From IMG/VR virus record IMGVR_UViG_3300032136_000003: DNA of 64,000 nt; one strand, 5' to 3'. Shown here in pieces: positions 1,193-39,600 of this stretch; the first letter of the stretch is position 1, and each line of letters starts with the position of its first letter. Source of the DNA: an uncultured virus (IMG/VR IMGVR_UViG_3300032136_000003). Taxonomy: Duplodnaviria > Heunggongvirae > Uroviricota > Caudoviricetes. Under the pieces are notes generated by a model. The model saw only the letters and a program-made list of their open reading frames with translations, was not told the DNA's origin and did not search any database. The position numbers were made by a program, and so were the translations under genes.

Positions 1193-1219
1193 GGTGAGGT
1201 AGCTCCTCACCCCCTTTTT
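1193..1219 (+). terminator. intrinsic terminator-like hairpin
   Basis: GGTGAGG-TAGCT-CCTCACC followed by CCC-TTTTT. Confidence 0.55.
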
Positions 1220-1226
1220 ATAAAAC

Positions 1227-1449
1227 AAAGCAACAGTGGCGGAAGATAGACGCTACAGTACCAGATAATCTTAAGTAAGGGTGATGCCTGAAAAAGAGAT
1301 TTGCCGAGTAACTTCGGAATTGTTTGCCGCATCTAGTAGAGGGTTCATCACCCCCACGGATCAATGGCATCGATTAAAACTGTCTGGAATTAGGCTCTGT
1401 CCGCGGAGGGCAGTAGGCCGTGCAGGTATCGAATCCTGTCTGTTGCTTT
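1227..1449 (+). ncRNA. tRNA-like RNA with about 115-nt insertion in the anticodon arm
   Basis: 10-bp terminal helix AAAGCAACAG/CTGTTGCTTT; Leu-type D arm TGGCGGAAGATAGACGC; long variable arm; T arm GCAGG-TATCGAAT-CCTGT. Confidence 0.7.
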
Positions 1450-1471
1450 CGTTTTACCTATTTTGATTTAT

Positions 1472-1543
1472 GGCAATAGGTAGGATGCGATACGCAGTGT
1501 AGTACTATAGATACACGTAAGTCAACGCATCCTGCCTGTTGCT
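1472..1543 (+). ncRNA. minihelix-like RNA sharing the 3' end of the tRNA-like family
   Basis: GGCAATAGGTAGGATGCG pairs with CGCATCCTGCCTGTTGCT (18 bp incl. G-U); 3' tail matches those ending at 1449 and 2128. Confidence 0.6.
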
Positions 1544-1555
1544 TTCATTTTTTGT

Positions 1556-1649
1556 GAGGATTCTGGCTCTGAACGCGCTATCGTGCGCGGTTATCTGACA
1601 ATAGCGAGGCTTAGTATGTCAGTACTGTAGCTGATTCAACCAGATCCTC
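1556..1649 (+). ncRNA. helix-closed multi-branch RNA element
   Basis: GAGGATTCTGG/CCAGATCCTC terminal helix; internal CGCGC/GTGCG and CTGACA/TGTCAG hairpins; T-run flanks. Confidence 0.5.
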
Positions 1650-1681
1650 CTCATTTTTATCAACACTAACGAGGAGAAATA

Positions 1682-1840
1682 ATGGCAACCTTATTAACTA
1701 TTATAGCCGGAGGGGCTATCGGCTTGGGGGCTGCACTGTTGACCGACCGTCCTATGAAAACACTAGGATATGCACTGTATGCCTGGGGCATAATAGGGAT
1801 ACTCCTGATACAGGGTGCGCGCCTGCTTGGTAGAATATAA
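1682..1840 (+). CDS. small two-helix membrane protein (52 aa, not in ORF track)
   Basis: GAGGAG SD; MATLLTIIAGGAIGLGAALLTDRPMKTLGYALYAWGIIGILLIQGARLLGRI. Confidence 0.7.
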   Translation: MATLLTIIAGGAIGLGAALLTDRPMKTLGYALYAWGIIGILLIQGARLLGRI

Positions 1841-1846
1841 CTTACA

Positions 1847-1873
1847 GCCGGGATAGTGACCCGGCCCATTTTT
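1847..1873 (+). terminator. repeated GCCGG hairpin, copy 1
   Basis: GCCGGG-ATAGTGA-CCCGGC then CCATTTTT; near-identical at 4318 and 5122. Confidence 0.6.
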
Positions 1874-1876
1874 ATT

Positions 1877-1992
1877 ATGTACAGAGTGACTCAACGAGTT
1901 GTTGCGGTGAGGAGCCTGTGAGAGTGTGGGCGCGTCCACATAAGTTCTCGAAGTTATGGGGTGGTTGTGGTGGTCATCCTCACTCTGTACAT
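1877..1992 (+). ncRNA. helix-closed structured RNA element
   Basis: 13-bp perfect terminal helix ATGTACAGAGTGA/TCACTCTGTACAT with internal hairpins. Confidence 0.55.
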
Positions 1993-2002
1993 ATTCATTT
2001 TT

Positions 2003-2128
2003 AGCAACGGTGGTGTAACAGAACACCTGGGTAACAGGCAGAGATAATAAGGGGCTCTCAAGCCTACATTAAAACTCTGACGGCCGGTTTATAAACGGAG
2101 CTGTAGGTATCGAATCCTACCCGTTGCT
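2003..2128 (+). ncRNA. tRNA-like RNA with extra arm and enlarged anticodon loop
   Basis: AGCAACGG/CCGTTGCT acceptor; D arm GTGT/ACAC; CAGAG/CTCTG stem; T arm GTAGG-TATCGAAT-CCTAC. Confidence 0.7.
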
Positions 2129-2158
2129 TTCATTTTAACAACTAACGAGGAGAACATC

Positions 2159-2425
2159 ATGGGAGACATGGCTGATATGCTGATTGCAGATGGTATGGAA
2201 TCCCTCTACAGCGGCTATATGGATTATGAAGAGGATAAATACGATCGCGTACGAAGGACGGCATCAGCTGGTGACAAATGTCACGCTTGTGATGATGGTA
2301 CTTACATTAAAAGAATAAACAGTTGCTCGGGAGTGACTTTCTTAGGTTGCAGTAGGTATCCTAAGTGCAGAAGCACAATTTCACACCGTTTTATAATAAC
2401 ACAAGGAGGATTAAATGAGTCTTAA
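2159..2425 (+). CDS. topoisomerase-type C4 zinc-ribbon protein
   Basis: CHACDDG...FLGCSRYPKCR matches the topoisomerase I C4 zinc-finger pattern. Confidence 0.65.
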   Translation: MGDMADMLIADGMESLYSGYMDYEEDKYDRVRRTASAGDKCHACDDGTYIKRINSCSGVTFLGCSRYPKCRSTISHRFIITQGGLNES

Positions 2426-4310
2426 CTACAAAGTCGGTGACCACGTTCACTACATGGCTAGCGGCCGTGACGCTGTTCTCGAGATAACTGACATTGACGA
2501 GTTTAACCAGATATATAGGATCAAACTCATCACAGACAATTTGAACGGAGAATATGACAAGAACCTTATGAATATTAAATCTCTTAAGGCGTTAGAAATG
2601 GCTTATCTTGAGAAGAACTCAGTTCTCTTGAGAAAGCCTGAACCTAAGCCTGAACCTAAGTCTAAGTATACACACAAGTTCAAAGTAGGCGATCTCGTTC
2701 ACTACTATCGAACAACAGACATGAAACGAGATGTCGTTCTGAAGATAACAGGGTTTATAGATGCTGATTATAAGGTGGCTACTGTCACAGACAAACTATA
2801 TAATTGGACTTTGAAATCCATATCAAGCGGGTGTTTAGATAAATTTGGTACTCGCATAGACGAGCCTGAACCTAAGCCTAAAGCTGAATACAAGTTCAAA
2901 ATAGGCGATTGCGTTCATTACTATCGAACAACGAACAAAAACAGAGACGTCGTTCTGAAGATAGAGGGTTTTATGAAGGCCGATTATAAAGTGTCTGTTG
3001 TCGAAGACAAACTAAATAATTGGACTATGAAATCCATTTTACGCTCGTGCTTAAATAAGTTTGGTACTCGAGTAAACGAGCCCAAGCCTGAACCTAAGCC
3101 TAAAGAGACGCATCACAAATTCAAAGTAGGAGATCGTATTCTGTTTAGTGACTCCGAGTTGCATGGTGAACTAGAAGTACTCGATATCTGTTATAACAAT
3201 AACAATTCAGGTACTAAGTTAATGTACGCTCTGAAACTCATAGCTGACTATTCTGATCACGACTTTAGCATAGTCGACTCTTCAACGTATGGAGGGACTG
3301 CAAGGTTTAATCGATACGTGTCTTACATAGACCGTCACTCTAGTCTGATAGCTAATCCTGAACCTAAGCCTAAGCCTAAGCCTAGGTTCAAGTACAAAGC
3401 AGGCGATCGTGTGCGGTTTCAAACCGCCGACAGAGACGCTGTCTTTGCGGTAAATGGTACCTACGGAAGTGAGGGCGATTATAATTATCACCTCCAGTTC
3501 ATTGAAGACTTCTATACAGGAGGCTTCAAGCCTCCCCCTGTGACTGATATAAACTATCTCGAAGCGAATTACTTAGAACGTAATTCTACTTTGTACAACG
3601 AAGCGCCTATGCCTGTGCCTGAAACTTCTTTCAAGAGCATAGACAAGTCTTGGCATTTGAAACAGGTAGAGGCTGTCTTAAAGAAGGGCTCAAACACCCC
3701 TAGACATGTCCAAGGTATGCTGTACATGGGTAAATATGGTGCGGCGTACTTGTTACATAACTACGGGGACTTCGTCAACGGATTCGAACCTATAGACAAA
3801 GACTATAGAGCAGGGGGGTGGAGAGACAAATACGCAGGCTCGTGGCATATAGGCTCAGTAAAAGAGGGTCTAGACCATCAATACTGTGACAGCATCAAAC
3901 TCATCGATAATCAAAACACGGAAGGTGAAGTATCTTCCACAACAACCAAAGAAGGAGAACCTAACATGTCAAAGATTAACATCAAGAAATTAGACAAGGC
4001 CCTAGCCGTAGCGAGGGACACACACAAAGCAGCAATAGAAGATTCACAGAAGGCCGCGAAAGTCGAAGCATTGGCTCTTGTAGAAAAGTTCTTCGAAAAG
4101 CAAGGCGCTGCCGTGCAGACTGAAGAGAAGGTGCTAGTTAGCACATCATCAGTAACATGTTCCGATTTCGACGACCTCAGAGCCCAGCTGGCCCTGTTGG
4201 ACGGCGATAGCGTCGACTCATCAGAGTTGATAAAGAACCCATTCACATTGATCAAGAACGCAGGCGCCTTGAACTCAGAGAAAAGGCACATTTCCATAAG
4301 TTCGTTCTAA
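2415..4310 (+). CDS. multidomain protein with five KOW/SH3-like repeats joined by PEPKPKP linkers
   Basis: Five (Y/F)KxGDxx modules separated by Pro/Lys/Glu linkers; strong SD. Confidence 0.7.
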   Translation: MSLNYKVGDHVHYMASGRDAVLEITDIDEFNQIYRIKLITDNLNGEYDKNLMNIKSLKALEMAYLEKNSVLLRKPEPKPEPKSKYTHKFKVGDLVHYYRTTDMKRDVVLKITGFIDADYKVATVTDKLYNWTLKSISSGCLDKFGTRIDEPEPKPKAEYKFKIGDCVHYYRTTNKNRDVVLKIEGFMKADYKVSVVEDKLNNWTMKSILRSCLNKFGTRVNEPKPEPKPKETHHKFKVGDRILFSDSELHGELEVLDICYNNNNSGTKLMYALKLIADYSDHDFSIVDSSTYGGTARFNRYVSYIDRHSSLIANPEPKPKPKPRFKYKAGDRVRFQTADRDAVFAVNGTYGSEGDYNYHLQFIEDFYTGGFKPPPVTDINYLEANYLERNSTLYNEAPMPVPETSFKSIDKSWHLKQVEAVLKKGSNTPRHVQGMLYMGKYGAAYLLHNYGDFVNGFEPIDKDYRAGGWRDKYAGSWHIGSVKEGLDHQYCDSIKLIDNQNTEGEVSSTTTKEGEPNMSKINIKKLDKALAVARDTHKAAIEDSQKAAKVEALALVEKFFEKQGAAVQTEEKVLVSTSSVTCSDFDDLRAQLALLDGDSVDSSELIKNPFTLIKNAGALNSEKRHISISSF

Positions 4311-4317
4311 ACTTAAT

Positions 4318-4344
4318 GCCGGAGTAGTGCTCCGGCCCATTTTT
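4318..4344 (+). terminator. repeated GCCGG hairpin, copy 2
   Basis: GCCGGAGTAGTGCTCCGGC then CCATTTTT. Confidence 0.6.
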
Positions 4345-4355
4345 CGATTTTAATT

Positions 4356-4439
4356 TCCGGGCGTGGTAAGCATTGACTTGACTTATCCTGAGCCCCGATG
4401 ACGTCGGGGGCCAGCTAGGTGAAAGACCTAGGCGTCGGG
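4356..4439 (+). ncRNA. three-arm tRNA-like RNA
   Basis: Imperfect terminal helix; GGTAAG/CTTATC arm; CCCCGAT/GTCGGGG arm; 5-bp/7-nt-loop T-like arm CTAGG-TGAAAGA-CCTAG next to the 3' strand. Confidence 0.5.
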
Positions 4440-4719: not shown

Positions 4720-5115
4720 ATGAAAAGAAAAACTAAACAAGTAAGCGACTGGATGTATTATGACCCTATATTAGAAGAGTTCTGTTTAGGGTTCCACGGT
4801 ATGTGTCTCAGCGGTATCCGAGAAGTCGTAGAACTTCCAGCGGGTACTCAGGCTATCAGGATTCACGTAAGCACAAAGAAGCAACATCCTCAGGATTTGT
4901 GGATTGATGTTGCTACTGAGCGCCACGGCAAGAAATCGAAATATAGCTGGCATCGAGTGCTTGATGCCGAGTCTTGCCGAAGCGGTGACTGGGCAATGCC
5001 GTTAGAAAGTACTCTCACTTATGGACTATTAGATTTACTGATCGGAGACTTGATTCCCTTAGACGACAGCTTATTCGAATTCACAAGACTATACTACCAC
5101 ATCGAATACAAATAA
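4720..5115 (+). CDS. hypothetical protein
   Basis: Abuts upstream stop; GGGGGAG SD. Confidence 0.65.
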   Translation: MKRKTKQVSDWMYYDPILEEFCLGFHGMCLSGIREVVELPAGTQAIRIHVSTKKQHPQDLWIDVATERHGKKSKYSWHRVLDAESCRSGDWAMPLESTLTYGLLDLLIGDLIPLDDSLFEFTRLYYHIEYK

Positions 5116-5121
5116 CTTACA

Positions 5122-5148
5122 GCCGGAGTAGTGCTCCGGCCCACTTTT
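5122..5148 (+). terminator. repeated GCCGG hairpin, copy 3
   Basis: GCCGGAGTAGTGCTCCGGC then CCACTTTT. Confidence 0.6.
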
Positions 5149-5152
5149 ATTT

Positions 5153-5248
5153 AGAGAGTAGGCCATAAAAGCGTCTTCGGACGTAGGCTGATCGTAAGGG
5201 GCCTGCCTTGTGGGATATCGTGCCCTGAAAAACCCACACCTACTCTCT
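5153..5248 (+). ncRNA. helix-closed multi-branch RNA with cUUCGg tetraloop
   Basis: AGAGAGTAGG/CCTACTCTCT terminal helix; GCGTC-TTCG-GACGT; GTGGG/CCCAC arm. Confidence 0.55.
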
Positions 5249-6136: not shown

Positions 6137-6211
6137 GGGGTGCGATTAGTTCAGTGGCAGAACTGTCTTTTGCGCTAGATAAGTCGCCGGTTCGATTCCG
6201 GCATCCACCCC
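6137..6211 (+). tRNA. atypical or pseudo-tRNA (anticodon ambiguous, TGC or GCG)
   Basis: D arm GTTC-AGTGGCA-GAAC; canonical T arm GCCGG-TTCGATT-CCGGC; acceptor with bulged C; 8-nt anticodon loop; no encoded CCA. Confidence 0.6.
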
Positions 6212-11834: not shown

Positions 11835-11990
11835 ATGGCTAGAAATTGCAAGGACGGAATGTGCGGCGCCTGGGACTGCGGGAAGTGCTTCCCTTACTCC
11901 GAGGCTGAAATTGAGTATCAGGAGGCGAAGGAAGAGGCGCAGCTTGATCGGATGGATCGGGAACGTGAACAAGAAAGCGAGGAAGGATGA
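11835..11990 (+). CDS. small Cys/acidic protein ending ESEEG (51 aa, not in ORF track)
   Basis: GAGGAG SD; MARNCKDGMCGAWDCGKC...EQESEEG. Confidence 0.65.
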   Translation: MARNCKDGMCGAWDCGKCFPYSEAEIEYQEAKEEAQLDRMDREREQESEEG

Positions 11991-12511
11991 AACATTACAA
12001 AACAATAGATGAGTTAAAGGCTGACTTAAATGATTATAAAGACTTGATTGTCCCTGAACATGATGTCAAGGTTGATTTTGACATTCCGTTGGGAGTGTTA
12101 AGAAATATTGAGTGCAGGAACTTCACCGGCAGGAACTTCACCAGCAGGGATTTCAACGGCTGGGATTTCAATGGCTGGAATTTCACCGGCGGGAATTTCA
12201 CCGGCGGGAATTTCACCGGCTGGAACTTCACCGGCTGGGATTTCAATGGCTGGGATTTCAATGGCTGGGATTTCAATGGCTGGGATTTCAATGGCAGGAA
12301 CTTCACCGGCAGGGATTTCAACGGCGGGAATTTCACCGGCGGGAATTTCACCGGCATGGATTTCAACGGTGACCACATAGATTATTACGCATTATTCGTC
12401 TGTTACGACTCATGTTCTTGTCTGTCACATAAATCGAGGCGCAACAACGCTCTACCTATCCAGTGTTTAGATGGGGAGTTGATTATCAGGGAAGAAAGCG
12501 AGGAAGGATGA
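11987..12511 (+). CDS. pentapeptide-repeat protein
   Basis: 17 tandem x(N/D)F(T/N)G pentapeptides encoded by a 15-nt repeat at 12116-12370. Confidence 0.75.
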   Translation: MKHYKTIDELKADLNDYKDLIVPEHDVKVDFDIPLGVLRNIECRNFTGRNFTSRDFNGWDFNGWNFTGGNFTGGNFTGWNFTGWDFNGWDFNGWDFNGWDFNGRNFTGRDFNGGNFTGGNFTGMDFNGDHIDYYALFVCYDSCSCLSHKSRRNNALPIQCLDGELIIREESEEG

Positions 12512-12515
12512 CAGA

Positions 12516-12695
12516 ATGATTAAAAAATGTCCATGCTGTAAAAAGCGGATTTGGAGATGGTGGAAAATCAGGAAGAGACGGATGAACACTCGATTTGTTG
12601 ACGAATCTCGTAATTTTCTAATGTCATGCGAATCATGCGCCCAAGAAACTTATGACTATTATTCGGACTTATGGTCTGAATGTTACTACGGATAA
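12516..12695 (+). CDS. small zinc-finger protein (59 aa, not in ORF track)
   Basis: MIKKCPCC...CESC...ECYYG. Confidence 0.55.
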   Translation: MIKKCPCCKKRIWRWWKIRKRRMNTRFVDESRNFLMSCESCAQETYDYYSDLWSECYYG

Positions 12696-12733
12696 AGGCA
12701 CTCGTTGCCAACAGAACAAGAAAGCGGGGAAGG

Positions 12734-13036
12734 ATGAATCTAGATACAATTACGTGGTTTGATTTATACCAGAGGGCCGAACATAAAAAGCATTTCGCAG
12801 AGCAAAAAAGGGCAGAAGGTGTTTTTGGCATAGCTATTGAAAAGGATATATTTGCAAAAATATGGCAAAGGGTAGATAGACAATCTCGAAAGTTTGAGGG
12901 ACGATTAAGGGCTTCTCTAGGGCAAAACTATTATAAGAATAGATGTGGTCGATGTGGTTATATGAGATACACAGAGGCATGTTGCAAGGAATTGGATTCG
13001 CAATCACTACAGACAAGAGAAAGCGGGGAAGGATGA
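12734..13036 (+). CDS. hypothetical protein ending ESGEG
   Basis: Starts and ends within junction motifs. Confidence 0.65.
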   Translation: MNLDTITWFDLYQRAEHKKHFAEQKRAEGVFGIAIEKDIFAKIWQRVDRQSRKFEGRLRASLGQNYYKNRCGRCGYMRYTEACCKELDSQSLQTRESGEG

Positions 13037-13218
13037 AAATAACAATAAAGCAGGCACGTAGGACGATTAAACAGGCATTCAAAAAAGACCCTGATTTCAG
13101 GCGTGGTTATGTTGATAATATAGCCTGTGTAATTATGGATAACGCCAAAGGATACACAAGAGACAAGGCTAAGCGTGATGCTTTGGCAGATAAGATACTG
13201 ACTCATATTTTGGGATAA
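13033..13218 (+). CDS. small basic hypothetical protein
   Basis: Starts in junction motif. Confidence 0.65.
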   Translation: MKITIKQARRTIKQAFKKDPDFRRGYVDNIACVIMDNAKGYTRDKAKRDALADKILTHILG

Positions 13219-13256
13219 TTAAAGGCACTCACTACAGAACAAGAAAGCGAGGAAGG

Positions 13257-13418
13257 ATGAAAGCTAAAGAATTGCTATTACTACTTGCAGAAATACTCAA
13301 TGCAGGAGAATTACAGCCTCACCATATTGGAGCTATAAAAGAAGTTTTGAATTATCCTACTGATGAGGAATTGTCAAAGATTATATTAACAGGAGAATTG
13401 AAAGAAAGCGAGAAGTAA
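13257..13418 (+). CDS. small hypothetical protein ending ESEK (53 aa, not in ORF track)
   Basis: Starts in junction motif; MKAKELLLLLAEIL... Confidence 0.6.
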   Translation: MKAKELLLLLAEILNAGELQPHHIGAIKEVLNYPTDEELSKIILTGELKESEK

Positions 13419-13422
13419 CAAA

Positions 13423-13629
13423 ATGAAACGTTGTGGATTTAAGCGGTCAACAATTTGGATAGATGACGATAAGCTTGAGACTTGGCGATGTAGTCGCCTA
13501 GGTAAGCATAAGTTTAATGATATTGATGGAGACGGAGAAATACTGCTTTGTACTCAACATTTTAAAATCGCAACTAAAGATTGCGAACTGCAAAGAGAAA
13601 GCGAGGAACAAAAATGCCAACTAACATAA
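13423..13629 (+). CDS. small Cys/His hypothetical protein
   Basis: Between junction motifs; ESEE near C-terminus. Confidence 0.6.
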   Translation: MKRCGFKRSTIWIDDDKLETWRCSRLGKHKFNDIDGDGEILLCTQHFKIATKDCELQRESEEQKCQLT

Positions 13630-13880
13630 TTACAGTTAATAACGCCGAAGAATTAGAATGGACAGTTTCAGACAGCAAGATGCCTGCAATTCTGTCTGTA
13701 CTTGATGCGATTGGAGAACGCACATGGTTATTGTGCGACTCTGATGTCGCGGATGAATTTAGGATAATGCAGCGATCAGGTGAGTGGTCGGACTGGCTAC
13801 CTATGCCTGACGATCTTAAAGGCAAAACCCTATACAACGGTTTCTCCGACATAGTGCAACACAGGTGTCGTAACAAATGA
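13614..13880 (+). CDS. hypothetical protein
   Basis: ATG after junction motif at 13597. Confidence 0.6.
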   Translation: MPTNIITVNNAEELEWTVSDSKMPAILSVLDAIGERTWLLCDSDVADEFRIMQRSGEWSDWLPMPDDLKGKTLYNGFSDIVQHRCRNK

Positions 13881-14140
13881 GCAGATTAATATGTGATTCT
13901 TGCGGAAAGCAATTTGTGATAGGGAACTTAGAGAGTTACCAAGACTTAGAACAACATGCTAAAAAGCACGGCTGGACATTTATAGAAGATGTGCTTTGTT
14001 CTAAGTGTATTCCCGATTGCGAAATGTCTGTCAAGATAAACGGACTATGGACAGAGTGGACGCCTGAAAGACCTGTTAATTACGGTGTTGAGGTAAAATA
14101 TAGGATGACAAAAGTAAAGGAAGAAAGCGAGGAAGGATGA
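13877..14140 (+). CDS. zinc-binding hypothetical protein ending ESEEG
   Basis: CDSC...CSKC; ATGA overlaps. Confidence 0.65.
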   Translation: MSRLICDSCGKQFVIGNLESYQDLEQHAKKHGWTFIEDVLCSKCIPDCEMSVKINGLWTEWTPERPVNYGVEVKYRMTKVKEESEEG

Positions 14141-14340
14141 GTACTTGCCCAGAATGTTATGAGGATGTAGGTTGCACTTGCATAGAGAATAAGCGCATAG
14201 CACAACTCGAAAAGGCTATCTGCGTTTATCAGCGAGAAGAGCATGGACACATCGAATGGGAGGATGATGAGACTGCTATAGATGAGTTCTTGATGAGATG
14301 GAATGATGAAACGTGTGATAAAGAAAGCGAGGGAAAATGA
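14137..14340 (+). CDS. acidic hypothetical protein ending ESEGK
   Basis: CPEC; bounded by junction motifs. Confidence 0.65.
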   Translation: MSTCPECYEDVGCTCIENKRIAQLEKAICVYQREEHGHIEWEDDETAIDEFLMRWNDETCDKESEGK

Positions 14341-14708
14341 GTGACTTAATCAGTGAGTATACGAAAAGTGGTTTAGTAAGTTCGCCTGCACTAAACTTTG
14401 AAGAATGTCATGGCTGTAGAGGTAGATTTCATAGAGATGAGTTAAACGATTATCTTTGTGCTGATTGTGAATTAGAAGACAAAAAGCATAGAGACCTGCT
14501 AAATAGAAAACTTAGAGGCGAATTAGATATGGCGGAGGCAAAAATCAAAATACTTGAGGGAATAAGAGATTGCTATAACGAATTACTAGCTGAGGTTGTT
14601 AATAAATACGAAGGAATTAGTAGGCACGACAGGGCTAAAGCTATCATAAGATCATCTGAACAGATGTGTAGCAGGGGTTCAGCTAAAATAGAAAGCGAGG
14701 GAGGATGA
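14337..14708 (+). CDS. zinc-finger/coiled-coil protein ending ESEGG
   Basis: CHGC...CADC; bounded by junction motifs. Confidence 0.65.
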   Translation: MSDLISEYTKSGLVSSPALNFEECHGCRGRFHRDELNDYLCADCELEDKKHRDLLNRKLRGELDMAEAKIKILEGIRDCYNELLAEVVNKYEGISRHDRAKAIIRSSEQMCSRGSAKIESEGG

Positions 14709-25049: not shown

Positions 25050-25916
25050 ATGGGTTATAGAAAAATACCAAACTTATATAGAGATATACGCATCCTTGAT
25101 TTCAAGAAGTGCTTCGCACTTGAAAAGATACATGGGACGAGTGCACACATATCATTCAGGATAGAGAACGACGCTCCACATTTCTTTTCTGGAGGAGAGA
25201 AACACGAGAACTTCGTGGCTCTATTTGATCAAGATAAACTTATGGCCGCGTTCAAAGGTGGGCCTATAATGCATGAATCCGTAACCATATTCGGAGAAGC
25301 ATATGGAGGCAAGCAGCAGGGCATGCGTGAAACATATGGAGACAAACTTAAGTTCATAGCATTTGAGGTCAATGCAGGCGGGGTTTGGCTCCCAGCTGAC
25401 GTCGCTCGCATGGTAGCGGATATGTATGACATAGAGTTTGTTGATTATGAAATCGGGCCCGCTACTATAGAATGGCTAAACGAACAACGTGACCGACCCA
25501 GCGTTCAAGCTGTTAGGAACGGGATTCTTGAGTCGAAGAAACGTGAGGGGATTGTAATACGTCCCTTGTCGGAGTACCTCGATTACAGAGGAAATCGCAT
25601 TATAACAAAGCACAAAGCAGATGACTTCAGGGAAACTAAGACCAGGCGGGAGATAGGGATGAGTCCCGAGAAGTTAAGGGTTCTTAAGGAGGCTAACGCC
25701 ATCGCAGACGAGTGGGTTACCCATATGCGATTGATGCATGTGCTCGATAAAATGCCAGAGAAAGGTGAACTGAAACACATTCCTCTAGTTATAAAGGCTA
25801 TGCAAGAAGACATCGAGTCGGAAAGCAGCGGCGAAATAGAGTGGTCAAAAGAAGCTAACAAAGCGATAGGAAATGCTACTGTAAAGCTTTATAAAAACCA
25901 CATTTCTAAAATCTAG
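25050..25916 (+). CDS. RNA ligase (Rnl2-like)
   Basis: Motif I EKIHGT, III FGEAYG, IIIa FIAFEV, IV REGIVIRP, V KHK. Confidence 0.8.
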   Translation: MGYRKIPNLYRDIRILDFKKCFALEKIHGTSAHISFRIENDAPHFFSGGEKHENFVALFDQDKLMAAFKGGPIMHESVTIFGEAYGGKQQGMRETYGDKLKFIAFEVNAGGVWLPADVARMVADMYDIEFVDYEIGPATIEWLNEQRDRPSVQAVRNGILESKKREGIVIRPLSEYLDYRGNRIITKHKADDFRETKTRREIGMSPEKLRVLKEANAIADEWVTHMRLMHVLDKMPEKGELKHIPLVIKAMQEDIESESSGEIEWSKEANKAIGNATVKLYKNHISKI

Positions 25917-30190: not shown

Positions 30191-30524
30191 ACCGGAAAAA
30201 ATGCACAGAGACTTCTGCCCACGATGCGCCATTAAGCATCTAGGCAAAGCGAGTATATTATTGAAGGAAGCCAAACTGGGGTATCCGCACCATGTGTGGT
30301 ACGCCATGGCTAACATGAGTGAGGCCGAGGACGAGATAGTTGATATGATGCCAGCAGAAGCCGAGGCCATTCGTGAGGCCCGACTCAATGTTCAAACCTC
30401 GCTGACAGACGGGACTCGTTTCATACCAGACTTCGATTCTCTTATGACCATGGTTGCGGAAGGTGGTCTGCTGGAAGAGGTTATGGATACTCAGACGGAA
30501 CTGGATTTCTCCGGAGGCAAGTAA
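30183..30524 (+). CDS. hypothetical protein
   Basis: GGAGG SD; CPRC..KHL..A. Confidence 0.6.
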   Translation: MSEPEKMHRDFCPRCAIKHLGKASILLKEAKLGYPHHVWYAMANMSEAEDEIVDMMPAEAEAIREARLNVQTSLTDGTRFIPDFDSLMTMVAEGGLLEEVMDTQTELDFSGGK

Positions 30525-30742
30525 TGAAATTATTCTTAGCGTATGTATTGTTAATCATGTCCCCATTTTTATTGGTGGGGATGAGGGTGGCCGAAGAAGA
30601 CATGATCCACGTTCCAAGTTCCCCGACCCTTGAAGAGACGGTTCGGGAGCTGGGGAAACAAGGGATCATATGTAAGGTGTACGGGCACCATTGGAACAAA
30701 GATGTTTGCAAGGTATGTAACTTTGAGAGGGCAGAAAGATGA
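30524..30742 (+). CDS. small membrane-anchored protein with C/H zinc motif
   Basis: Hydrophobic N-terminus; CKVYGH.W...CKVC. Confidence 0.55.
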   Translation: MKLFLAYVLLIMSPFLLVGMRVAEEDMIHVPSSPTLEETVRELGKQGIICKVYGHHWNKDVCKVCNFERAER

Positions 30743-32958: not shown

Positions 32959-32984
32959 CGGCCCCACATATTAGTACAAATTTA

Positions 32985-33013
32985 TTGACAAAGACATCAT
33001 ATAATAGTATGGT
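32985..33013 (+). promoter_or_regulatory. sigma70-like promoter, probably giving a leaderless mRNA
   Basis: TTGACA-17 nt-TATGGT; ATG at 33020 is 7 nt downstream; no SD. Confidence 0.6.
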
Positions 33014-33019
33014 TTTATT

Positions 33020-33589
33020 ATGACTGAAGAACTTGTAAAGGGATCTGAATACACCACAGTAGATAGTTACGACCCGAAGGTTAAAGCAAAAGCTTATGAG
33101 TTGTTCCTAACTACAGACCTCAGCATGACCGACATAGCCATCGACCTGGGCATATCAAGCAAGGTGGTGGCTTCTTGGTCGCGTCAAGGTAAGTGGATGA
33201 ACCGTAAGAAGGAAGTCGAGATGGAGCTGTTCAAATCGGCCGAGTCTGACTACCGCGCTTTGGTCGTACAGAACAGAGTCCCAGTCGTCAAGAGACACCT
33301 CCGCATATCAGAGAAGGTGGAGGAGTCTATCGAGCGTGTGTTGGATGAGATCCTCAAGGACGAAGGTATACCCAACGACATGAAAGTCAAGCGTATGGCC
33401 GAGGCACTATCAGTTGTGTCTGCTGTGTCGGCCAGAGCCGCCGGAGTAACTGACCGCCCATTCTCAGATAATCTAGATGAAGACGGAAATAAGAAGGTGC
33501 CTCTCATCATGGTCAACGTGCAAGCGTCCGCTCCTCCCGGAGTAAAGATGGGTGAAGTGAAAGCCAAAGTTATAGACGTTAACCCCTAA
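33020..33589 (+). CDS. HTH protein, probable terminase small subunit
   Basis: SMTDIAIDLGISSKVVASW...W HTH followed by helical oligomerisation-like region. Confidence 0.55.
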   Translation: MTEELVKGSEYTTVDSYDPKVKAKAYELFLTTDLSMTDIAIDLGISSKVVASWSRQGKWMNRKKEVEMELFKSAESDYRALVVQNRVPVVKRHLRISEKVEESIERVLDEILKDEGIPNDMKVKRMAEALSVVSAVSARAAGVTDRPFSDNLDEDGNKKVPLIMVNVQASAPPGVKMGEVKAKVIDVNP

Positions 33590-33698: not shown

Positions 33699-36600
33699 TT
33701 ATGGGTTCCTGAATGCGTCCTCGATCCACTCTTTCTGTTGATCGGTTAGCTTCCTCGGCTTGCCGTACAAGAAGTTTCTGCTCTTCATACTCCTCTGAGT
33801 ACTGCGGATAGTTCCGTTGACTCTGAGGATGGCGCGACTCCACTTCTCTGTGGACACCTTGTCGTTACCGTCGATCGCTCTGTACAACTTAGCATACAAT
33901 TCTTTCATCACAACACCACGAGCTGACTTGAGAACTTTCTCTCCGTCATACCCATTACGGTTAGCCGCGTCAAGGATAGCTGGCCCAAGAGCTTCAAGGT
34001 TGGCTTTAACCTTTTTATTCTTGTATATGTTATCCGTTCCACCGGCCTTGGCCCACGTTTCAAGCAACCCGGTATATGCCTCAGTGGCTCCACGGAACGA
34101 TATACCTTTGCTCGTTGGACCGAGGAGCTGGAACGGGGCTGCGTCAGGATGCTTAGACCAGGCCAAGATACTGAACGGCATGAACTTCTGGACAGTGTAC
34201 CCAGCACGTGAACCCATGAAACCACCATCTTCACTCATGATCAACCCAGCAAGACCCATGTCCTTGAACTCAAGCTCCCAACCGCCACCACCAGCTGATT
34301 CTCCAGTAGCCTGTTCAATCGCCCAGCGGGCTGGTTGTGACAGCTTACCAGTAAGAGAACCCCAAGGAGTGTCAAGCCAGCGCTTTATTTCGTACGCCTG
34401 CTTACCCCAGCGGATGTATGTCCGACGCTCTCCAGTCGGGTATCCCTTATAGAATGGGAGGTTCCTTACCAGAGGAGTTATGTCAGCACTGAATTTTCTA
34501 CCCTCTTCGTTATTGAACATGAAAAATTCATCGTCATCATCAGGCGGTCCGAAGGCTCTACCTGCTGTGTATGCCAACGCCTGCACCATAGCAGGAACTA
34601 AAGTAATTACCCCCAGCATCATGGTAGGCCACCTGCGGAACATGATATGCTTGAACTCTTGATCAGACAAATATGTCTTGGAGAATGCTCCGGTCAATAA
34701 CTCTCCACCAGCAGCTCTCCAAGCCGATATCGACCAGTTAGGTGAGAACATCAGCAGGGAAAGGTTACGCCTCCAAGTAGGTGTCATATAAGACATCTTA
34801 TTCCAGTTCACTCCACCAAGTTCACCGTTGATGTAGTTCACATACGGAGCCATGTCCTCTTCAAAATCAAACGGCAGACCCGCTGCCTCAGCCTCAGCTT
34901 CCAATTTCTGTGCCATGAAGTGAGCGGCCCAGAGTTTGGCTGAGTTAAAGAAGCTGTCAAAGACTATCTCTGTTTGTTTCAGTGGTAGCTTGGCGATCAT
35001 CTCAAAGTTATCTGCTGCTTTCTTACCGATGTTGGTGAGAACCCAGTCAGTCATCTTCGCTATGTCCTTCTCAAGGATACCCCGCGGCAGACTTAATGGA
35101 TGAGATGAGTCACTATAAGTGATACCTATCTTGCGCCCTTTCTTCATTAGTTCTACCACGTACGGATGTTCGGACTTGATAGCTTCTTCAAACTCGAGAA
35201 GCATCTTAAGACCACCCTGCCTCCAGAATTCTCCATGAGACAAAGCAGTGAGCGATTCCAAACCAGCGATTGGGAAGAACAATGAGAACTGTAGAGCCCC
35301 CATCTTCATCCAAGCATTAGCGCGTTCGATTCCTTTGAGCGCCCCATATGGATCTTGCCAAGGAGTTTCAAATACGTGCTTCAAGATACCAGCCACCTCG
35401 CCACCAGCCATTGCCGCGTCTAGAATGTTTTCTCCTCCTCGGCCCCGGTGTATTGTATAGAACGCGTTGACTGATGGATAAGGCGACTCAACTCTTGTAT
35501 AGCCTTTATTTTTTACGAAATGATCCTGCACCATTTGATCTATGTTCCACTTAGCAGACTGTGTTTTGTCGAGAGGCTTACCCAAATAACGAGAAAGATT
35601 CTGAGCAACAGCTTCCCAAGTAACGTCCGTGACAAGATTCTCACCAGCGTAATTCAGGTTAGGAGACGGAATAACGAGAGGCGTGTTAGCCGCGTCTGTG
35701 GTAAGAAGCATTTGATTTATCATAGCCCTGTTAGCAGTACTCGTCATAATGTCAGACGCGTATTTGTGCAGCATTTCGTTAGCCCCAATGCTATCAGGTC
35801 TGTAACCACCAAGCATATAAGCATCTTCGTATGTGCTGTACTTACGAGTTTTTGTTCTATTGCTATACCCACGATTCTTGAAATCAACCATCATCTCACC
35901 AGTAGCTTTCGCCAGAGCGAGGGGATGCTCGAGCATATCCCCATCAGCAAGTTTGATAGGATCGTCGAGAGTCTTCTGAGCATTCGCTAAACGAGCTAGC
36001 AGTCTGTCATAAACTTCTCCGTGAATGAAGTTAGCCAAGTCAGCATAATCCATGTCAGGAGTTAGCCCGATGTCCTTGTGAGCTCCCGATCTGATCTCAG
36101 AGATAGCTTGACCTTCGTTCTTGAAGTGCAGTCCTTTGAGACCGAAAGCAAACTTGAGCATCTTGTATGAAGCGTCCGTGAGACTTCTCACCCTACCGCT
36201 TGCTTCTTTGGAAGCGGCTAAAGTTAACCTATGGGATTCCATGTTCTTCTCGAGGACGGCTTGGATGTTTTTCTCTAATGCAAGCCTGGCTGCTTTCTCT
36301 TCAGTACCCAAGAAACCAATACCCTTGTAATGGGTAACGTAGTTTTCGCGGTGCCACAGATAAGGTGCGTCAGGGCTCACGAACCAAGGAAGATCAGTTG
36401 TTACTTCCTTGTATAAGTTCTCCAAACGCTCCGACGTTTCACGCGCCAGTTCAGCTATATCCATGCGCTTAGGATCCCTACCAGCATCCAAAAGTTTCTG
36501 TCTATAAGAGGATGATCTAAAGTATTTGTCAATCATGCTAACAGGAACCATCCAGTTCATCTTGGTTGGGCGCCAGTTGCTATCTTCTTCCTGACCGTTA

Positions 36601-39600
36601 GCCAATGTTTCTGTTGCATCTGCCCTATAGTCAGCGTCACCGACGTTGATAGGAACCTTCTGATATATACCAATACCAGCAGCATGCAGGGCACGAGCTA
36701 CAGCTCTGTCTCGAGCCAGTTGCTCGGGACGGCTTTTTCCATCCATCTTAATACCAGCCATAACCTTTTTCTTGGCTTCAAGCAATTGGTCAGCTATTTC
36801 TTTCGGGAATACATCGTAGATACTCTTATCGTTCTCAGTGAATATACCTGTTATAACGTGCGCTACTTCCAGAGCAGCCTTGTGGTCTGTCTTGCCATCT
36901 TTGGTAGCGTGCTCCATGCTGGCCATTGCAGCCGCTTGGACTACTTCAGCAAGTTTTCTCTCGTCCTCAGTCAACTTATTTCTAGTCGCCCCACTTGCAT
37001 GAGTAGTACGAGTTAATTCAGGTCCCTCTCCCCTGTTACCCTTCAAATCTATTTTGGTTTTCTCTGTGATGAACGCACGTACTTGGCCCCCGTCACCAAG
37101 AGCCCATTCGTGAATGATCTTAGTATAGTGGGCACTCTCTTCAGCCAGTATAGCGCTCAGCTTACCCTGCTCTTTCATTAGAATCCTATGCAAAGCGTTA
37201 GATCCACCGATAAGAGAGGGAGCGATGATGCTGTTCAACACTTCAGCCGCATTCAATACAGACGCTGAAACAGTTCCATCAACGTAATCAGAGTCACCTG
37301 CTTCTTGAACCATGGCATATGGTGGTATTTTATGGGGGATGATATTGTGGTCACTCATCCTTGCTGTCTGCATTCTAGGTACGTTGTTCGCGGCATGCTC
37401 AAGCAGTGACAGGATGGTAGCGTTGTCCATACCATAAATCTTTTGGTCTTTAATAGCCATCAAGCTGGCACGAGCAGCTTCGAAAGTAGGTGCTGCTTTG
37501 TATCCAACCAATGCCTTATCCCAAGCAGACTTGATCTTGGCAGCTTCGATAGCAACCTTGTTCTTGCCTTCTTTCTTGGCATGCTCCATCGCAGCTTGTT
37601 CTTTCTCACCTAGCTTGATGGCTTTCTGTTTCATGTGCCATGAGACAAGTTGATCGCGACTTTTGGCCCTGTCAGCCCAGATGTTGGACGTACGTTTACC
37701 TGTGCCGTCGTATGTTCTATCAAAGATATCCATAGTGTTTTCGACGCGGGCACGAAGTCCAGCCATATCACTACGGCGGTACAGTTTGGAGTCTCTCAAC
37801 TCAAGCTGTGCCATAACGAAGTCACCCTCGTTTATGGCTTCTAACATATTCTTGAAACCTGGGAGAACGCTCCAATGATACAAGTCAACGATAGCGACCT
37901 GACGCTCAGTAGAAAGTTTGTCGAATCCAGCAATATCTTTACGGGCTTTTGCGATATACTTTTTGGTGAAGTGGTTGAGAAGCGCATCGTACTCTGCTTC
38001 TGTTATGCTCTTCTTACCGCTCTTCAGATCCTCGAATGACGCCCCGGTGATCTTCTCTATCTCAGCCTTGCGCTTATCAAACAATCTGATTCCCGGGCCG
38101 ATGGCTGGTGTACCTAGATCGTCGTACGCTGACATGTTACGTCCAGTACGCCCCTCGAAACTCGCGATACGTGCTGCAGCAGCTTGTTCCATATTGAGCT
38201 GTTTGACAGATTCAATTGGATTGCCTACCTTGCCACGAGCGTCCATCGTTGGGGTCACTGCCGTAGCAATCAGCCCAGCGGCTACGAGCTCCCGAATGGA
38301 AGCTGTAGTTTCGCCGGTAGCTGCGATCTCAACGCCCGATGGTGTGGGAGAAAACAGGGGTTGCTGTACCGGAGCTACCTGACGTGCAGGGGCTGCGGCC
38401 TCCTTTGTTGAGATCAAGGGTTTAAGTCTATTTGTATAAAGTCTTGTGTCTGCTTGAGATAATCCGCCAATACGATCGCGAGATATCTCACGGGTCAGGT
38501 CTCTCGTTATAAGTTCAGGTTTCCTGTTCTTATCTGTACGAATCCGATCGAATCTTTCAGCGTGGGCCTTGATCTCAGCATTGAAGAAACGCATATCGTT
38601 ACGCGCGCTTTCGGGCATCGGTCTTGGAATTGATTCACCGTAGTTACCGCGAACCCTTGCATATTCATAAGCAGCTCTCGATTTAGCTTGAACCGCTGAC
38701 TTAGCATCTACTATAGAAGCAGATGTTGTTCCCGGTCTCTCTATAATCTGAGGAGCTTCGGACACTACTTCCGAACGAGCTGTCTCCATATCCAACTCTC
38801 GGTACACACCGGGACGATGAAGCAATTTTACCTTGTCAGATGTTCTGGTTATTGCCGTGTAGTACCAACGACCTGCGTTCCAAGACGGGGCTACGTAGTC
38901 CTGATCCACGTAAACAGTTTCCCATTGGCTACCTTGAGACTTGTGGGCTGTAACTGCGTACCCGTAGGTAGCTATTACTAGCTTCTTGCTGACACCGAGT
39001 TTGCCCTCTTTGTCCTTTTTTATATCACCCTTATCCATTAATTTTATCAATGTTTCCCTCGATATTCCCTTCAGAATGTCTGGGTGATACAAGCTCGGTA
39101 TGTCCATGGCAGTTACAAAGTACATGGTCACGCGGCGGGGGCCTCCTTCTCCAAGGGTGTTTATCTGGGCGGTAACCCTCTTTACAGGTACTGTTATATC
39201 CTTCTTATACTTCCCAGACCCCTTGGTCGCCTGAACGGTGAATTCATACTCGTCGCTTTCTGATGCAGGCGCTTCGGTTACAGTGAACAACTCGCTGTTG
39301 GATACCCCCACAGCGTTGGCCACTCCCATAAGCCTATCTCCCTCGTTCAGCATGTTGTTCGCATCCGCCCCAAATAAGGCTTTCCTCGCGTACCTATTGT
39401 ACATATTCCGCTGTCTATTGGTGGCCGTTACCATAATCGTCTGTTCACTATCACGCTTCACGTCGTCCTGATAATCCCGAATGAATTTCTGATCCTGAGC
39501 CGTGTCATAGATCTTAAATTGTTCTGTACCAGCTCCTACGGGTATGGAGGGCACATTGTCTTGCCTCGTCTTAGTAGCCATTACCAAAACATCAGAGTCA

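Follow-up and report, generated by a model that had tools for sequence, protein, structure and literature searches.

The window, by which we mean the whole 64,000-nt stretch of DNA analysed here, from an uncultured sediment phage, encodes two tRNA-shaped RNAs on its + strand: R1 (1227..1450), with a large expanded anticodon arm, and R5 (2003..2131), with a small one. R1 was delineated from its sequence, its minimum-energy fold, covariation with R5 and a descriptor scan, and R5 from sequence, fold and covariation with R1. At least three further structured elements lie beside them on the same strand, R1–R2–R3 and R4–R5 forming contiguous runs. R2 (1469..1546; repeat family D6) is an 18-bp hairpin (fold z −5.89; none of 200 shuffles equal) in which the T-arm/acceptor 3' strand and trailer occur for a third time, as the 3' arm, paired with a complementary 5' arm; local alignments matched it at 26/32 positions to the 3' end of R1 and at 28/34 to that of R5. 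This partial 3'-end copy (1517-1552) was missing from an earlier, sequence-only reading of the DNA. R3 (1554..1654) has a long terminal stem enclosing three hairpins (fold z −3.85; 0/200 shuffles equal); downstream come CATTTTT and then a 52-aa ORF (1682-1840), preceded by its leader and ribosome-binding site. R4 (1876..1993; inverted repeat I12, fold z −2.41), directly upstream of R5, holds three hairpins in a terminal stem that starts with a perfect 14-bp inverted repeat. A terminator-like hairpin with a T run (1193..1220, + strand) stands just upstream of R1; it is one of four copies of family D3, the others starting at 1837, 4308 and 5112. On the 3' side of R1 is a U-rich trailer, TTTCGTTTTA (1447..1456, + strand), a spacer or terminator-like tract, of which TTTCATTTT recurs after R2 (1544-1552) and R5 (2128-2136).

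Elsewhere in the window, similar elements are found at 5153-5248 (R6) and 4357-4439 (R7). A phage RNA ligase gene (25050..25916, + strand; phrog_548, E 1.6e-25; PF09414, E 1e-9) lies 23 kb from R1 and R5, and the candidate link between them is the suggestion in the sequence-only reading that these RNAs contain an intron. Within the window, antisense targets of the inserts occurred at chance level (longest complement 13 nt for R3 and R7, and 12 nt for R1). We rejected an N4-like classification with a giant virion RNA polymerase, because the 5540-aa ORF matches only a Dda-like helicase family.

Sequence and folds agree with the earlier description of both RNAs as having an acceptor, a D arm, a long variable arm and a T arm with a common 8-nt loop, and these follow one another in tRNA order. 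In R1, the acceptor pairs G1230-G1236 with C1440-C1446 and is extended by three A:U pairs to 1227/1449; the D arm spans 1239-1253 (stem 1239-1241/1251-1253), the expanded anticodon arm 1261-1387 (outer stem CCAGA/TCTGG) and the variable arm 1393-1419, and the T stem (1422-1426/1435-1439) encloses the 8-nt loop TATCGAAT (1427-1434). The corresponding parts of R5 are the acceptor (2004-2010/2121-2127), the D arm (2013-2026; stem 2013-2016/2023-2026), the expanded anticodon arm (2039-2079; outer stem CAGAG/CTCTG), the variable arm (2082-2102) and the T arm (2103-2120; stem 2103-2107/2116-2120), with an 8-nt loop identical to that of R1. The window contains exactly two occurrences of the string GGTATCGAATCC, at 1425 and 2106. 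No CCA is encoded 3' of either acceptor, as previously stated; TTTC comes next in each. Both D loops lack GG, being listed as (G)AAGATAGA in R1 and AACAGA in R5. The altered elbow (8-nt T loop, D loop without GG) could hinder RNase P or other tRNA enzymes.

The cloverleaf emerges from unconstrained minimum-energy folding of each RNA, at −76.5 kcal/mol for R1 (z −2.71; 1/200 shuffles equally good) and −41.5 kcal/mol for R5 (z −2.33; 3/200). As z-scores, −2.7 and −2.3 are modest. G.U pairs are consistent with the + strand only. R1 and R5 have in common the outer stem of the expanded arm, an inner TAAT/ATTA stem of 4–5 bp and the internal motif GATAAT...ATTAAAACT; their apical domains differ. In the folds, the expanded arm as encoded measures 127 nt in R1 and 41 nt in R5, and a tRNA-frame reading gives 114 and 36 nt of extra RNA, respectively, the insert length varying with the fold chosen. 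These lengths replace the insert sizes of about 115 and about 25 nt proposed before.

We compared 16 frame pairs (7 acceptor, 4 D and 5 T) between R1 and R5. Eight of the 32 sites differ, a divergence of 25% at stem sites, and the changes comprise three double compensatory changes (acceptor A:T/G:C, D stem C:G/T:A, T stem C:G/T:A), one G.U to G:C replacement and one mismatch (G.A in R1), leaving 15/16 pairs intact in R1 and 16/16 in R5. The pairing-preserving differences in T stem and acceptor claimed earlier are therefore real, with one broken pair among 16. When eight random substitutions were simulated on 32 sites, at most one broken pair arose with P = 0.0014 and at least three compensatory doubles with P = 0.0015, a covariation P value that is optimistic because the stems were picked after the sequences were seen. 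The T loop is identical at 8/8 positions despite the changed T stem; this odd 8-nt loop is therefore older than the duplication and has been retained. R1 and R5 are paralogues with stems under selection: conservation and covariation are seen in the acceptor, the T arm and the T loop, and the apical parts of the anticodon arms are unrelated. MAFFT could not align the two across the insert, and a covariance model of R5 found in the window only itself and the 3' part of R1.

Relatives carrying the RNA were not found, and the case for conservation therefore consists of two paralogues in one genome. Neither blastn of 1000-2400 against 50,697 phage records nor tblastn of the 631-aa neighbour against phage records gave a match. 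In viral contigs, exact-pattern scans for the T arm plus acceptor returned two chance matches in coding-looking sequence without a tRNA, and scans for ATTAAAACT followed by the T arm returned none; in metagenome contigs the latter pattern had seven chance matches, all of them lacking a T stem and an acceptor. Protein-guided searches of viral contigs with the 631-aa neighbour and the helicase, with a 16-sequence alignment of a 405-aa structural protein and with a 3-sequence alignment of a 553-aa protein found nothing. The 405-aa protein does have 17 homologues, 41–60% identical, on Logan, ENA, JGI and NCBI contigs no longer than 28.8 kb. The genome collection yielded two syntenic MAG contigs, from both of which the early region is missing because they begin at the helicase or later; they contained no tRNA, descriptor match, motif or R5 covariance-model match. 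Three runs from two studies, all DNA, hold the sequence in identical form, and therefore supply no variants for covariation.

ARAGORN at default settings called a single gene in the window (6139-6211) and Rfam at gathering threshold matched only 6140-6209; neither identified R1 or R5. At E ≤ 10, the region 900-2500 had three Rfam matches, none to tRNA (RF00005), and tmRNA, YrlA, skipping-rope and other tRNA mimics had no match at either gathering score or E ≤ 10. A full-length match to an Rfam family, the outcome that the sequence-only reading had named as counter-evidence, was looked for up to E 10, and none was found for R1 or R5. A tmRNA call by ARAGORN at relaxed threshold was discarded as spurious, being permuted and on the minus strand.

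R1 and R5 resemble a canonical class II tRNA (RF00005) in their 7-bp acceptor, U8, D arm, long variable arm, T arm closed by G53:C61 and overall cloverleaf. They differ from it at the elbow, where a canonical tRNA has a 7-nt T loop (T-Psi-C-R-A-N-N) and G18G19 and they have an 8-nt T loop and no G18G19, and in the anticodon arm, where a 5-bp stem with a 7-nt anticodon-presenting loop is absent as encoded. A 7-nt loop, T-TTAAAA, arises only after deleting 36 nt (R5) or 114 nt (R1). With relaxed settings that permit introns, ARAGORN reads R5 as tRNA-Leu(taa) with a 36-nt insert at 2033-2068, and the best three matches of the R5 covariance model in the T5 tRNA region are the three genuine class II tRNA-Ser genes of that phage (E 0.0053, 0.049 and 0.072). 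The frame of R1 and R5 is tRNA-grade.

In architecture, R1 and R5 match RNA1 and RNA2 of phage T5, their nearest known counterparts. GenBank AY543070 lists RNA1 (30501-30644, 144 nt) and RNA2 (32959-33083, 125 nt) as misc_RNA, labelled 'tRNA-like stable RNA with unknown functions' and in tandem with other stable RNAs (RNA1-RNAI-RNAIII-tRNA-His; RNA2-RNAIV). Both fold as cloverleaves with expanded anticodon arms. From the wording of that record, we take them to have been detected as physical stable species; our literature search found no paper on their function. With introns permitted, ARAGORN finds RNA1 at its default threshold: the body is a tRNA-Leu(taa) of 91 nt, interrupted by 40 nt on the 5' edge of its anticodon loop. 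RNA1 is full length in 487/487 matching phage records, and in an 8-sequence alignment 10/36 pairs show compensatory change, some of them inside the expanded arm, which is under structural selection in this family. The UAA 'anticodon' is not conserved in the same alignment.

ARAGORN assigns R5 the same body length (91 nt), tRNA type and insert site as T5 RNA1; the inserts measure 36 and 40 nt, respectively, and TTAAAA and the 3' stem come next in both. Like RNA1 and RNA2, R1 and R5 have a tRNA body in which a structured insert replaces the anticodon loop, encode no CCA and stand in tandem with other structured RNAs of ~100 nt. However, the T loop of RNA1 is a canonical one of 7 nt and its D loop contains GG, whereas R1 and R5 have the 8-nt loop and lack GG; the insert of R1 is multi-branched and about threefold longer. 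The phages are also unrelated, the DNA polymerase of this one being at most ~26% identical to that of any cultured phage. A covariance model built from eight Demerecviridae RNA1 sequences gave 13 matches in the window at E ≤ 10, none overlapping R1 or R5; homology was thus not detectable, and the RNAs are of one design and of different families. Reciprocally, T5 RNA1 was not among the 42 matches of the R5 model.

On balance, we think it moderately probable that R1 and R5 are paralogous genes for non-decoding, tRNA-derived structured RNAs. Both would have retained a body of class II (tRNA-Leu-like), with the standard anticodon stem-loop lost to a long structured extension. By analogy with T5 RNA1/RNA2 and tRNA clusters, R1 and R5 would be co-transcribed with R2–R4 on the + strand. 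Because the acceptor/T-arm minihelix is intact, we propose that host tRNA-processing enzymes may excise them, with RNase P cutting at the 5' end and 3' trimming taking place in the U-rich trailer, and the excised molecules would build up as small, stable RNAs. Processing and stability would come from the tRNA body, with the expanded arm as the working part; our guess is that the arm most likely binds or titrates a tRNA-recognising factor, for instance a modification enzyme or a defence nuclease of the host. The sequence-only reading had offered a tRNA scaffold displaying variable RNA cargo, which fits the anatomy and has a precedent in T5 RNA1/RNA2. If R1 and R5 are decoys or scaffolded regulators, they would belong to an unrecognised class of phage early-gene products that tRNA finders and Rfam miss.

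R1 and R5 might instead act in cis as parts of early mRNAs, either as tRNA-like 'punctuation' or as leader or terminator modules, with RNase P or RNase E cutting between cistrons, transcription stopping at the U-rich trailers, or protection of the mRNA ends of the genes downstream (1682-1840 and 2159-2425). The layout agrees with this: R1–R5, R6 and R7 each lie between a terminator-like hairpin and a gene leader, each of R1–R5 ends in a stem followed by TTTC(A/G)TTTT or CATTTTT, and only 27 nt separate the end of R5 from the ATG of the ORF at 2159. We nevertheless consider it unlikely, since the retained D arm, the long variable arm, the identical T loop and the GATAAT...ATTAAAACT motif are left unexplained and in T5 the annotation treats the analogous RNAs as stable species and not as leaders. 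The cis and free-RNA readings are compatible because excising a tRNA-like RNA also cuts the mRNA.

A further possibility is that R1 and R5 are interrupted tRNA-Leu(UAA) genes giving rise to working, or at least tRNA-sized, molecules. Inserts at 2033-2068 (36 nt) and 1260-1373 (114 nt) would sit between position 32 and U33, an endonuclease would remove them, and the halves would be joined, perhaps by the phage RNA ligase, whose gene is present in the window. One frame can be drawn in both RNAs (D stem, no nucleotide 26, 5-position stem, T, insert, TTAAAA, 3' stem), and R5 without 2033-2068 is a default-grade ARAGORN tRNA-Leu(taa) of 91 nt. There is also a reported parallel in Lak megaphages, where tRNAs have highly conserved introns described as 'enigmatic' (Devoto et al. 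2019, PMC6784885). There, as here, conserved extra RNA interrupts phage tRNA genes that bacterial tRNA finders reject, and no splicing route is known, splicing not being shown there either (PMC6784885). The Lak cases differ in involving several tRNA types, called with the eukaryote settings of tRNAscan-SE, and in coming from unrelated phages (PMC6784885). Beyond the Lak report, the literature as far as it was accessible yielded no anticodon-arm-expanded phage tRNA mimics.

Controls argue against such an intron. With the middle of R5 shuffled, the deletion scan still gave at least one default ARAGORN call in 66/100 shuffles, and in 22/100 at least as many default calls as the real sequence; shuffled middles are called too, and the R5 deletion result therefore supports the frame, not an intron. 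None of 1800 R1 deletion variants was called. The Leu(UAA)-like loop noted earlier can thus be drawn as T-TTAAAA, but only after the insert is deleted, and it is easily obtained in shuffles. The expanded-arm fold is better than the intron-type fold by 10.1 kcal/mol in R5 and 4.2 kcal/mol in R1, and each intron-type anticodon stem contains a mismatch (T.C in R1, T.T in R5). At default threshold with introns permitted, ARAGORN calls nothing at R1 or R5, yet it calls T5 RNA1. Inspection of the folds revealed no bulge-helix-bulge motif. Where that motif would have two 3-nt bulges 5' of the helix strands, the TAAT/ATTA helix of R5 (4 bp) has internal loops of 1x3 and 3x2; in R1 the helix is 5 bp long and the loop 0x6. 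Group I, other intron and ribozyme families gave no Rfam match at E ≤ 10, and the inserts are below the group I size limit. Among the 41 window ORFs compared with Pfam, most of the small ones matching no family, none was recognised as a splicing endonuclease, a kinase or a CCA-adding enzyme. The U discriminator (bacterial LeuRS as a rule requires A73), the T loop of 8 nt and a D loop that lacks GG also speak against a working leucine tRNA. TTA accounts for an ordinary 12.8% of leucine codons, and the UAA triplet itself varies in the T5 RNA1 family. With the ARAGORN argument cancelled by the shuffle control, and the fold energies and the missing motifs opposed to it, a tRNA precursor spliced by the phage RNA ligase seems improbable.

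We regard as equally improbable that R1 and R5 are decaying pseudogenes, that is, a duplicated tRNA-Leu gene altered by insertions and local rearrangement and without present function. Both RNAs are missed by standard detectors and have aberrant T and D loops, R2 resembles a rearranged fragment of the same 3' end, no relatives with R1/R5 were found and the contigs of relatives lack any tRNA, all as decay would predict. Against decay stand the compensatory changes, which keep 15/16 (R1) and 16/16 (R5) pairs at 25% divergence, and the letter-for-letter identity of a T loop that predates the duplication; moreover, 350 nt of junk is rarely kept in compact phage genomes. Least probable is that R1 and R5 are DNA-level signals (promoter hairpins or an origin) built from a 36-nt repeat: this 36-nt 3' end does have three direct copies, each just upstream of the next unit, and genes downstream of terminators need promoters, of which a sigma-70 scan showed no excess (15 sites versus 15.7 expected), but acceptor covariation across 120 and 210 nt and covariation in the D arm are unexpected for a local DNA hairpin, and the G.T pairs become A.C on the opposite strand.

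Returning to R1 and R5 as stable, non-decoding RNAs, the same body type and insert site in a phage without detectable relationship to T5 suggests a recurrent solution, not a T5 oddity. Reportedly, Ponchon and Dardel engineered a 'tRNA scaffold' for RNA expression in bacteria. In it, the cargo RNA sits in the anticodon arm, and tRNA processing and folding yield a stable chimera. R1 and R5 share the position of the extra RNA with this artificial construct and may exploit its logic. A broader idea, which we put forward as a long shot, is that T5-like phages, Lak-like phages and this phage independently turned tRNA bodies into a general chassis with interchangeable modules: the acceptor/T-arm half may recruit host processing and confer stability, and the 5' edge of the anticodon loop may be where modules are inserted. 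Here, one chassis carries two modules, of 36 and 114 nt. Such a chassis would be a natural counterpart of the engineered scaffold, delivering regulatory or decoy RNAs early in infection. In a bolder form, the phage RNA ligase may join the halves again after excision of the module, which would amount to protein-dependent tRNA splicing in a bacterial system. For comparison with the T5 pair, R1 and R5 add a second and very different pair, with an altered elbow and a threefold larger module.

The two tRNA-shaped RNAs, R1 (1227-1450, + strand) and R5 (2003-2131, + strand), carry the tRNA-like features listed in the sequence-only reading, and their arms were recovered by folding. The acceptor helices are 7 bp long (GCAACAG/CTGTTGC in R1, GCAACGG/CCGTTGC in R5), with an A on the 5' side, TTTC on the 3' side and no encoded CCA, and positions 8-9 are T-G in both. 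Both have a D arm and a long variable arm, which has 10 bp in R1 and an irregular 7-8 bp in R5; the T stem is 5 bp long, and its G:C closing pair lies beside an 8-nt loop, TATCGAAT, identical in the two. Unconstrained folding returned the cloverleaf for both, with modest z-scores (-2.71 for R1, -2.33 for R5). In both RNAs the expanded arm comes after the D arm and before the variable arm. Its 5-bp outer stem (CCAGA/TCTGG in R1, CAGAG/CTCTG in R5) is followed by an internal loop, A-rich and on the 3' side, and by an inner stem, TAAT(C)/(G)ATTA; the apical part beyond is a single hairpin in R5 and about 95 nt with several hairpins in R1. The common ATTAAAACT may be a mere trace of recent shared origin.

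We compared the two RNAs over the 16 pairs of the tRNA-type frame (7 acceptor, 4 D and 5 T). Eight of the 32 stem sites differ, and pairing is kept at 16/16 positions in R5 and 15/16 in R1; three pairs are altered on both sides and one goes from G.U to G:C. Eight substitutions placed at random matched this outcome in about 0.15% of 200,000 trials, an optimistic figure because the stems were selected after the sequence had been seen. We also scanned both strands of the window and of two related contigs with a simple descriptor, which demanded a T arm whose T-loop-like loop has 7-8 nt and, immediately after it, 7 nt able to pair perfectly with a strand 60-320 nt upstream. Four of its five matches were R1 and R5, with two alternative 5' partners each; shuffled sequences gave 0-5 matches, so a lone match means little, and the evidential weight lies in paralogy and compensation rather than in descriptor matches. 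Pattern scans of viral and metagenome contigs returned chance matches only. A 405-aa structural protein had 17 homologues (41-60% identity), and the early region was absent from both related contigs that we compared. The observation made in the sequence-only reading is real.

Neither R1 nor R5 is a standard tRNA. ARAGORN called one gene in the window (6139-6211) and none at R1 or R5, and neither matched Rfam at the gathering score; with E up to 10 there were just three stray matches, to one norovirus UTR and two microRNAs. The T loop is one base longer than normal and the D loops lack GG, a combination that should keep the normal tRNA elbow contacts from forming in the usual way. The frame itself is tRNA-grade. 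When a covariance model built from R5 only was run against 18 kb of the T5 tRNA region, its top three matches were the three class II tRNA-Ser genes of T5 (E 0.0053, 0.049 and 0.072). With relaxed settings and introns allowed, ARAGORN read R5 as tRNA-Leu(taa) with a 36-nt insert, in a run that made six further calls within 1.4 kb unsupported by other evidence, and in silico deletion of 2033-2068 turned R5 into a 91-nt tRNA-Leu(taa) at the default threshold.

The expanded-anticodon-arm design is already known from phage T5, in which RNA1 (144 nt) and RNA2 (125 nt) are annotated as 'tRNA-like stable RNA with unknown functions', RNA3 as 'putative tRNA-like RNA', and RNAI, RNAIII, RNAIV, RNA2H and RNAX as stable RNAs of unknown function, arranged in tandem with one another and with tRNAs (GenBank AY543070). 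RNA1 and RNA2 are predicted to fold as cloverleaves with expanded anticodon arms. With introns allowed, ARAGORN called RNA1 at its default threshold as tRNA-Leu(taa), with a body of 91 nt and an insert of 40 nt that begins directly after the 5' anticodon stem and is followed by CTTAAAA; body type, body length and insert site all equal those of the relaxed call for R5. RNA1 was covered over 80% or more of its length in all 487 matching phage records. We aligned T5 RNA1 with seven copies chosen across the identity range of these matches, and the consensus cloverleaf has 36 pairs. Compensatory change is seen at 10 of them; in the expanded arm, two of these 10 belong to the outer stem, one to the middle stem and three to the apical stem. 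The TTAAAA stretch occurs in three different versions among the eight sequences, so RNA1 is no conserved decoder of UAA. In the T5 family the design is thus seen to exist and to be kept by selection, and the annotation is that of a stable species of full length. R1 and R5 share the design with T5 RNA1 but not the family. A covariance model made from the eight RNA1 sequences gave 13 matches in the window (E up to 10), none at R1 or R5, and RNA1 was not among the 42 matches of the R5 model in the T5 region. The loops of RNA1 are canonical, in contrast to the 8-nt T loop and GG-less D loop of R1 and R5, and the module size of R1 is also unlike that of RNA1. There is also a related report for Lak megaphages (PMC6784885).

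We lean towards the reading that R1 and R5 are non-decoding tRNA-derived RNAs. The scaffold half of the earlier interpretation is reasonable. They would be cut out of early transcripts by host tRNA-processing enzymes and build up as stable RNAs, the tRNA body acting as a chassis for processing and stability; the working part would be the expanded arm. Our best guess at their role is binding of a tRNA-recognising factor.

The surroundings of R1 and R5 also bear predicted structures and repeated signals. R2 (1469-1546) is an 18-bp hairpin (z -5.89). The T-arm/acceptor 3' strand and trailer recur, as a third copy, in its 3' arm (26/32 identical to R1, 28/34 to R5), and its 5' arm is the complement of that copy. 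R3 (1554-1654, +; z -3.85) and R4 (1876-1993, +; z -2.41) are single-sequence predictions of three hairpins with a long terminal closing stem; elements of the same shape are predicted likewise at 5153-5248 (+; z -3.03) and 4357-4439 (+; z -2.55), each with a repeated terminator on one side and a repeated leader of a gene on the other. These four, of about 85-120 nt each, are predicted to fold like T5 RNAIII and RNAIV and may constitute a second class, of small RNAs or of leaders. Each of R1-R5 is followed by a U-rich tract, TTTC(A/G)TTTT or CATTTTT. The repeated cassette ends comprise a 40-nt stop-codon-plus-terminator family in four copies (1183-1222, 1837-1876, 4308-4347 and 5112-5151) and a conserved leader at 2135, 4448 and 5258, with a variant at 1660, which reads TTAACAACTAAC(G/A)AGGA and precedes start codons; 4444 and 5254 share an identical stretch of 30 nt. 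That R1 and R5 are themselves cis-acting leader or punctuation elements is possible, though we think it unlikely.

We give little credence to R1 and R5 being spliced tRNA-Leu precursors, for which the default-threshold call after removal of 2033-2068 speaks. The R5 deletion scan gave 10 default calls among 900 variants, but when the 53 nt between the D and variable arms were shuffled, 66 of 100 shuffles gave at least one default call and 22 gave ten or more; the call is thus explained by how good the other four arms are, and not by a true anticodon stem-loop under an intron. The R1 scan gave no call in 1800 variants. Folds forced to contain an intron-type anticodon stem were less stable by 10.1 (R5) and 4.2 (R1) kcal/mol, no bulge-helix-bulge motif was seen in either, and no intron or ribozyme family matched (Rfam, E up to 10). 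Pfam searches of 41 ORFs found no splicing endonuclease, kinase or CCA-adding enzyme. The RNA ligase gene (25050-25916) is 23 kb distant, with no homologue detected in the one relative spanning that region, and TTA makes up an unremarkable 12.8% of leucine codons in 30 long ORFs. On the shuffle control, the fold cost and the lack of a motif or of a splicing enzyme in the scanned ORFs, the intron proposed in the sequence-only reading is unsupported. It is similarly improbable that the two RNAs are decaying pseudogenes, and very improbable that they act as DNA-level signals.

The 1100-2140 region sits within a cluster of small + strand genes of the uncultured phage and is non-coding save for one 52-aa ORF (1682-1840). 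Besides rIIA/rIIB-like genes, a helicase and the RNA ligase, the window encodes a DNA polymerase of family A, whose identity to that of any cultured phage is at most about 26%; its structural genes had no match in PHROG and Pfam searches. The sequence was found unchanged in contigs of three DNA runs on sediment metagenomes, which belong to two studies, and in no RNA run among those searched. In two of the runs (X2 and X3) the contig over the left part of the window stops at position 16, with 255 unaligned letters as a loose end (the X2 contig is 10,464 nt). The first 15 bases may be an assembly junction. The phage genome continues leftward by at least 8.9 kb, where further RNAs of the R1/R5 type could lie.

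The odd tRNA at 6139-6211 (+) is the only one accepted by the detectors (Rfam tRNA, 33.5 bits; cut-off 29). ARAGORN gave it an 8-nt anticodon loop and a four-base 'anticodon', tgcg, and left it unnamed (Ala or Arg); its acceptor has C.C and A.A mismatches, with two additional G:C pairs possible outside. A 5540-aa ORF (33699-50321, -), with a 5681-aa counterpart in a related contig, matches a single family, that of a Dda-like helicase (phrog_325, E 8e-55), at about residues 3400-3830 counted over the whole ORF, and its N-terminal 2774 aa match nothing. A 631-aa protein (2415-4310, +), with no relatives among viral contigs or cultured phages, contains at least four copies of an about 70-aa module starting (Y/F)K(V/I/A)GD, connected by EPKPEPKPK linkers, and its DNA has 216-nt tandem repeats; unrelated contigs pile up at the linker repeat and produce a huge depth spike. 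A 174-aa pentapeptide-repeat protein (11987-12511, +; PF13599, E 4e-8, and PF00805) is possibly an anti-restriction or anti-defence early protein, since this fold occurs in DNA mimics. Finally, 11835-14708 (+) holds a series of small ORFs, many with CxxC pairs, that end in ...ESEEG, ...SGEG, ...ESEK, ...SEGK or ...ESEGG, apparently because their last codons encode the ribosome-binding site of the next gene.
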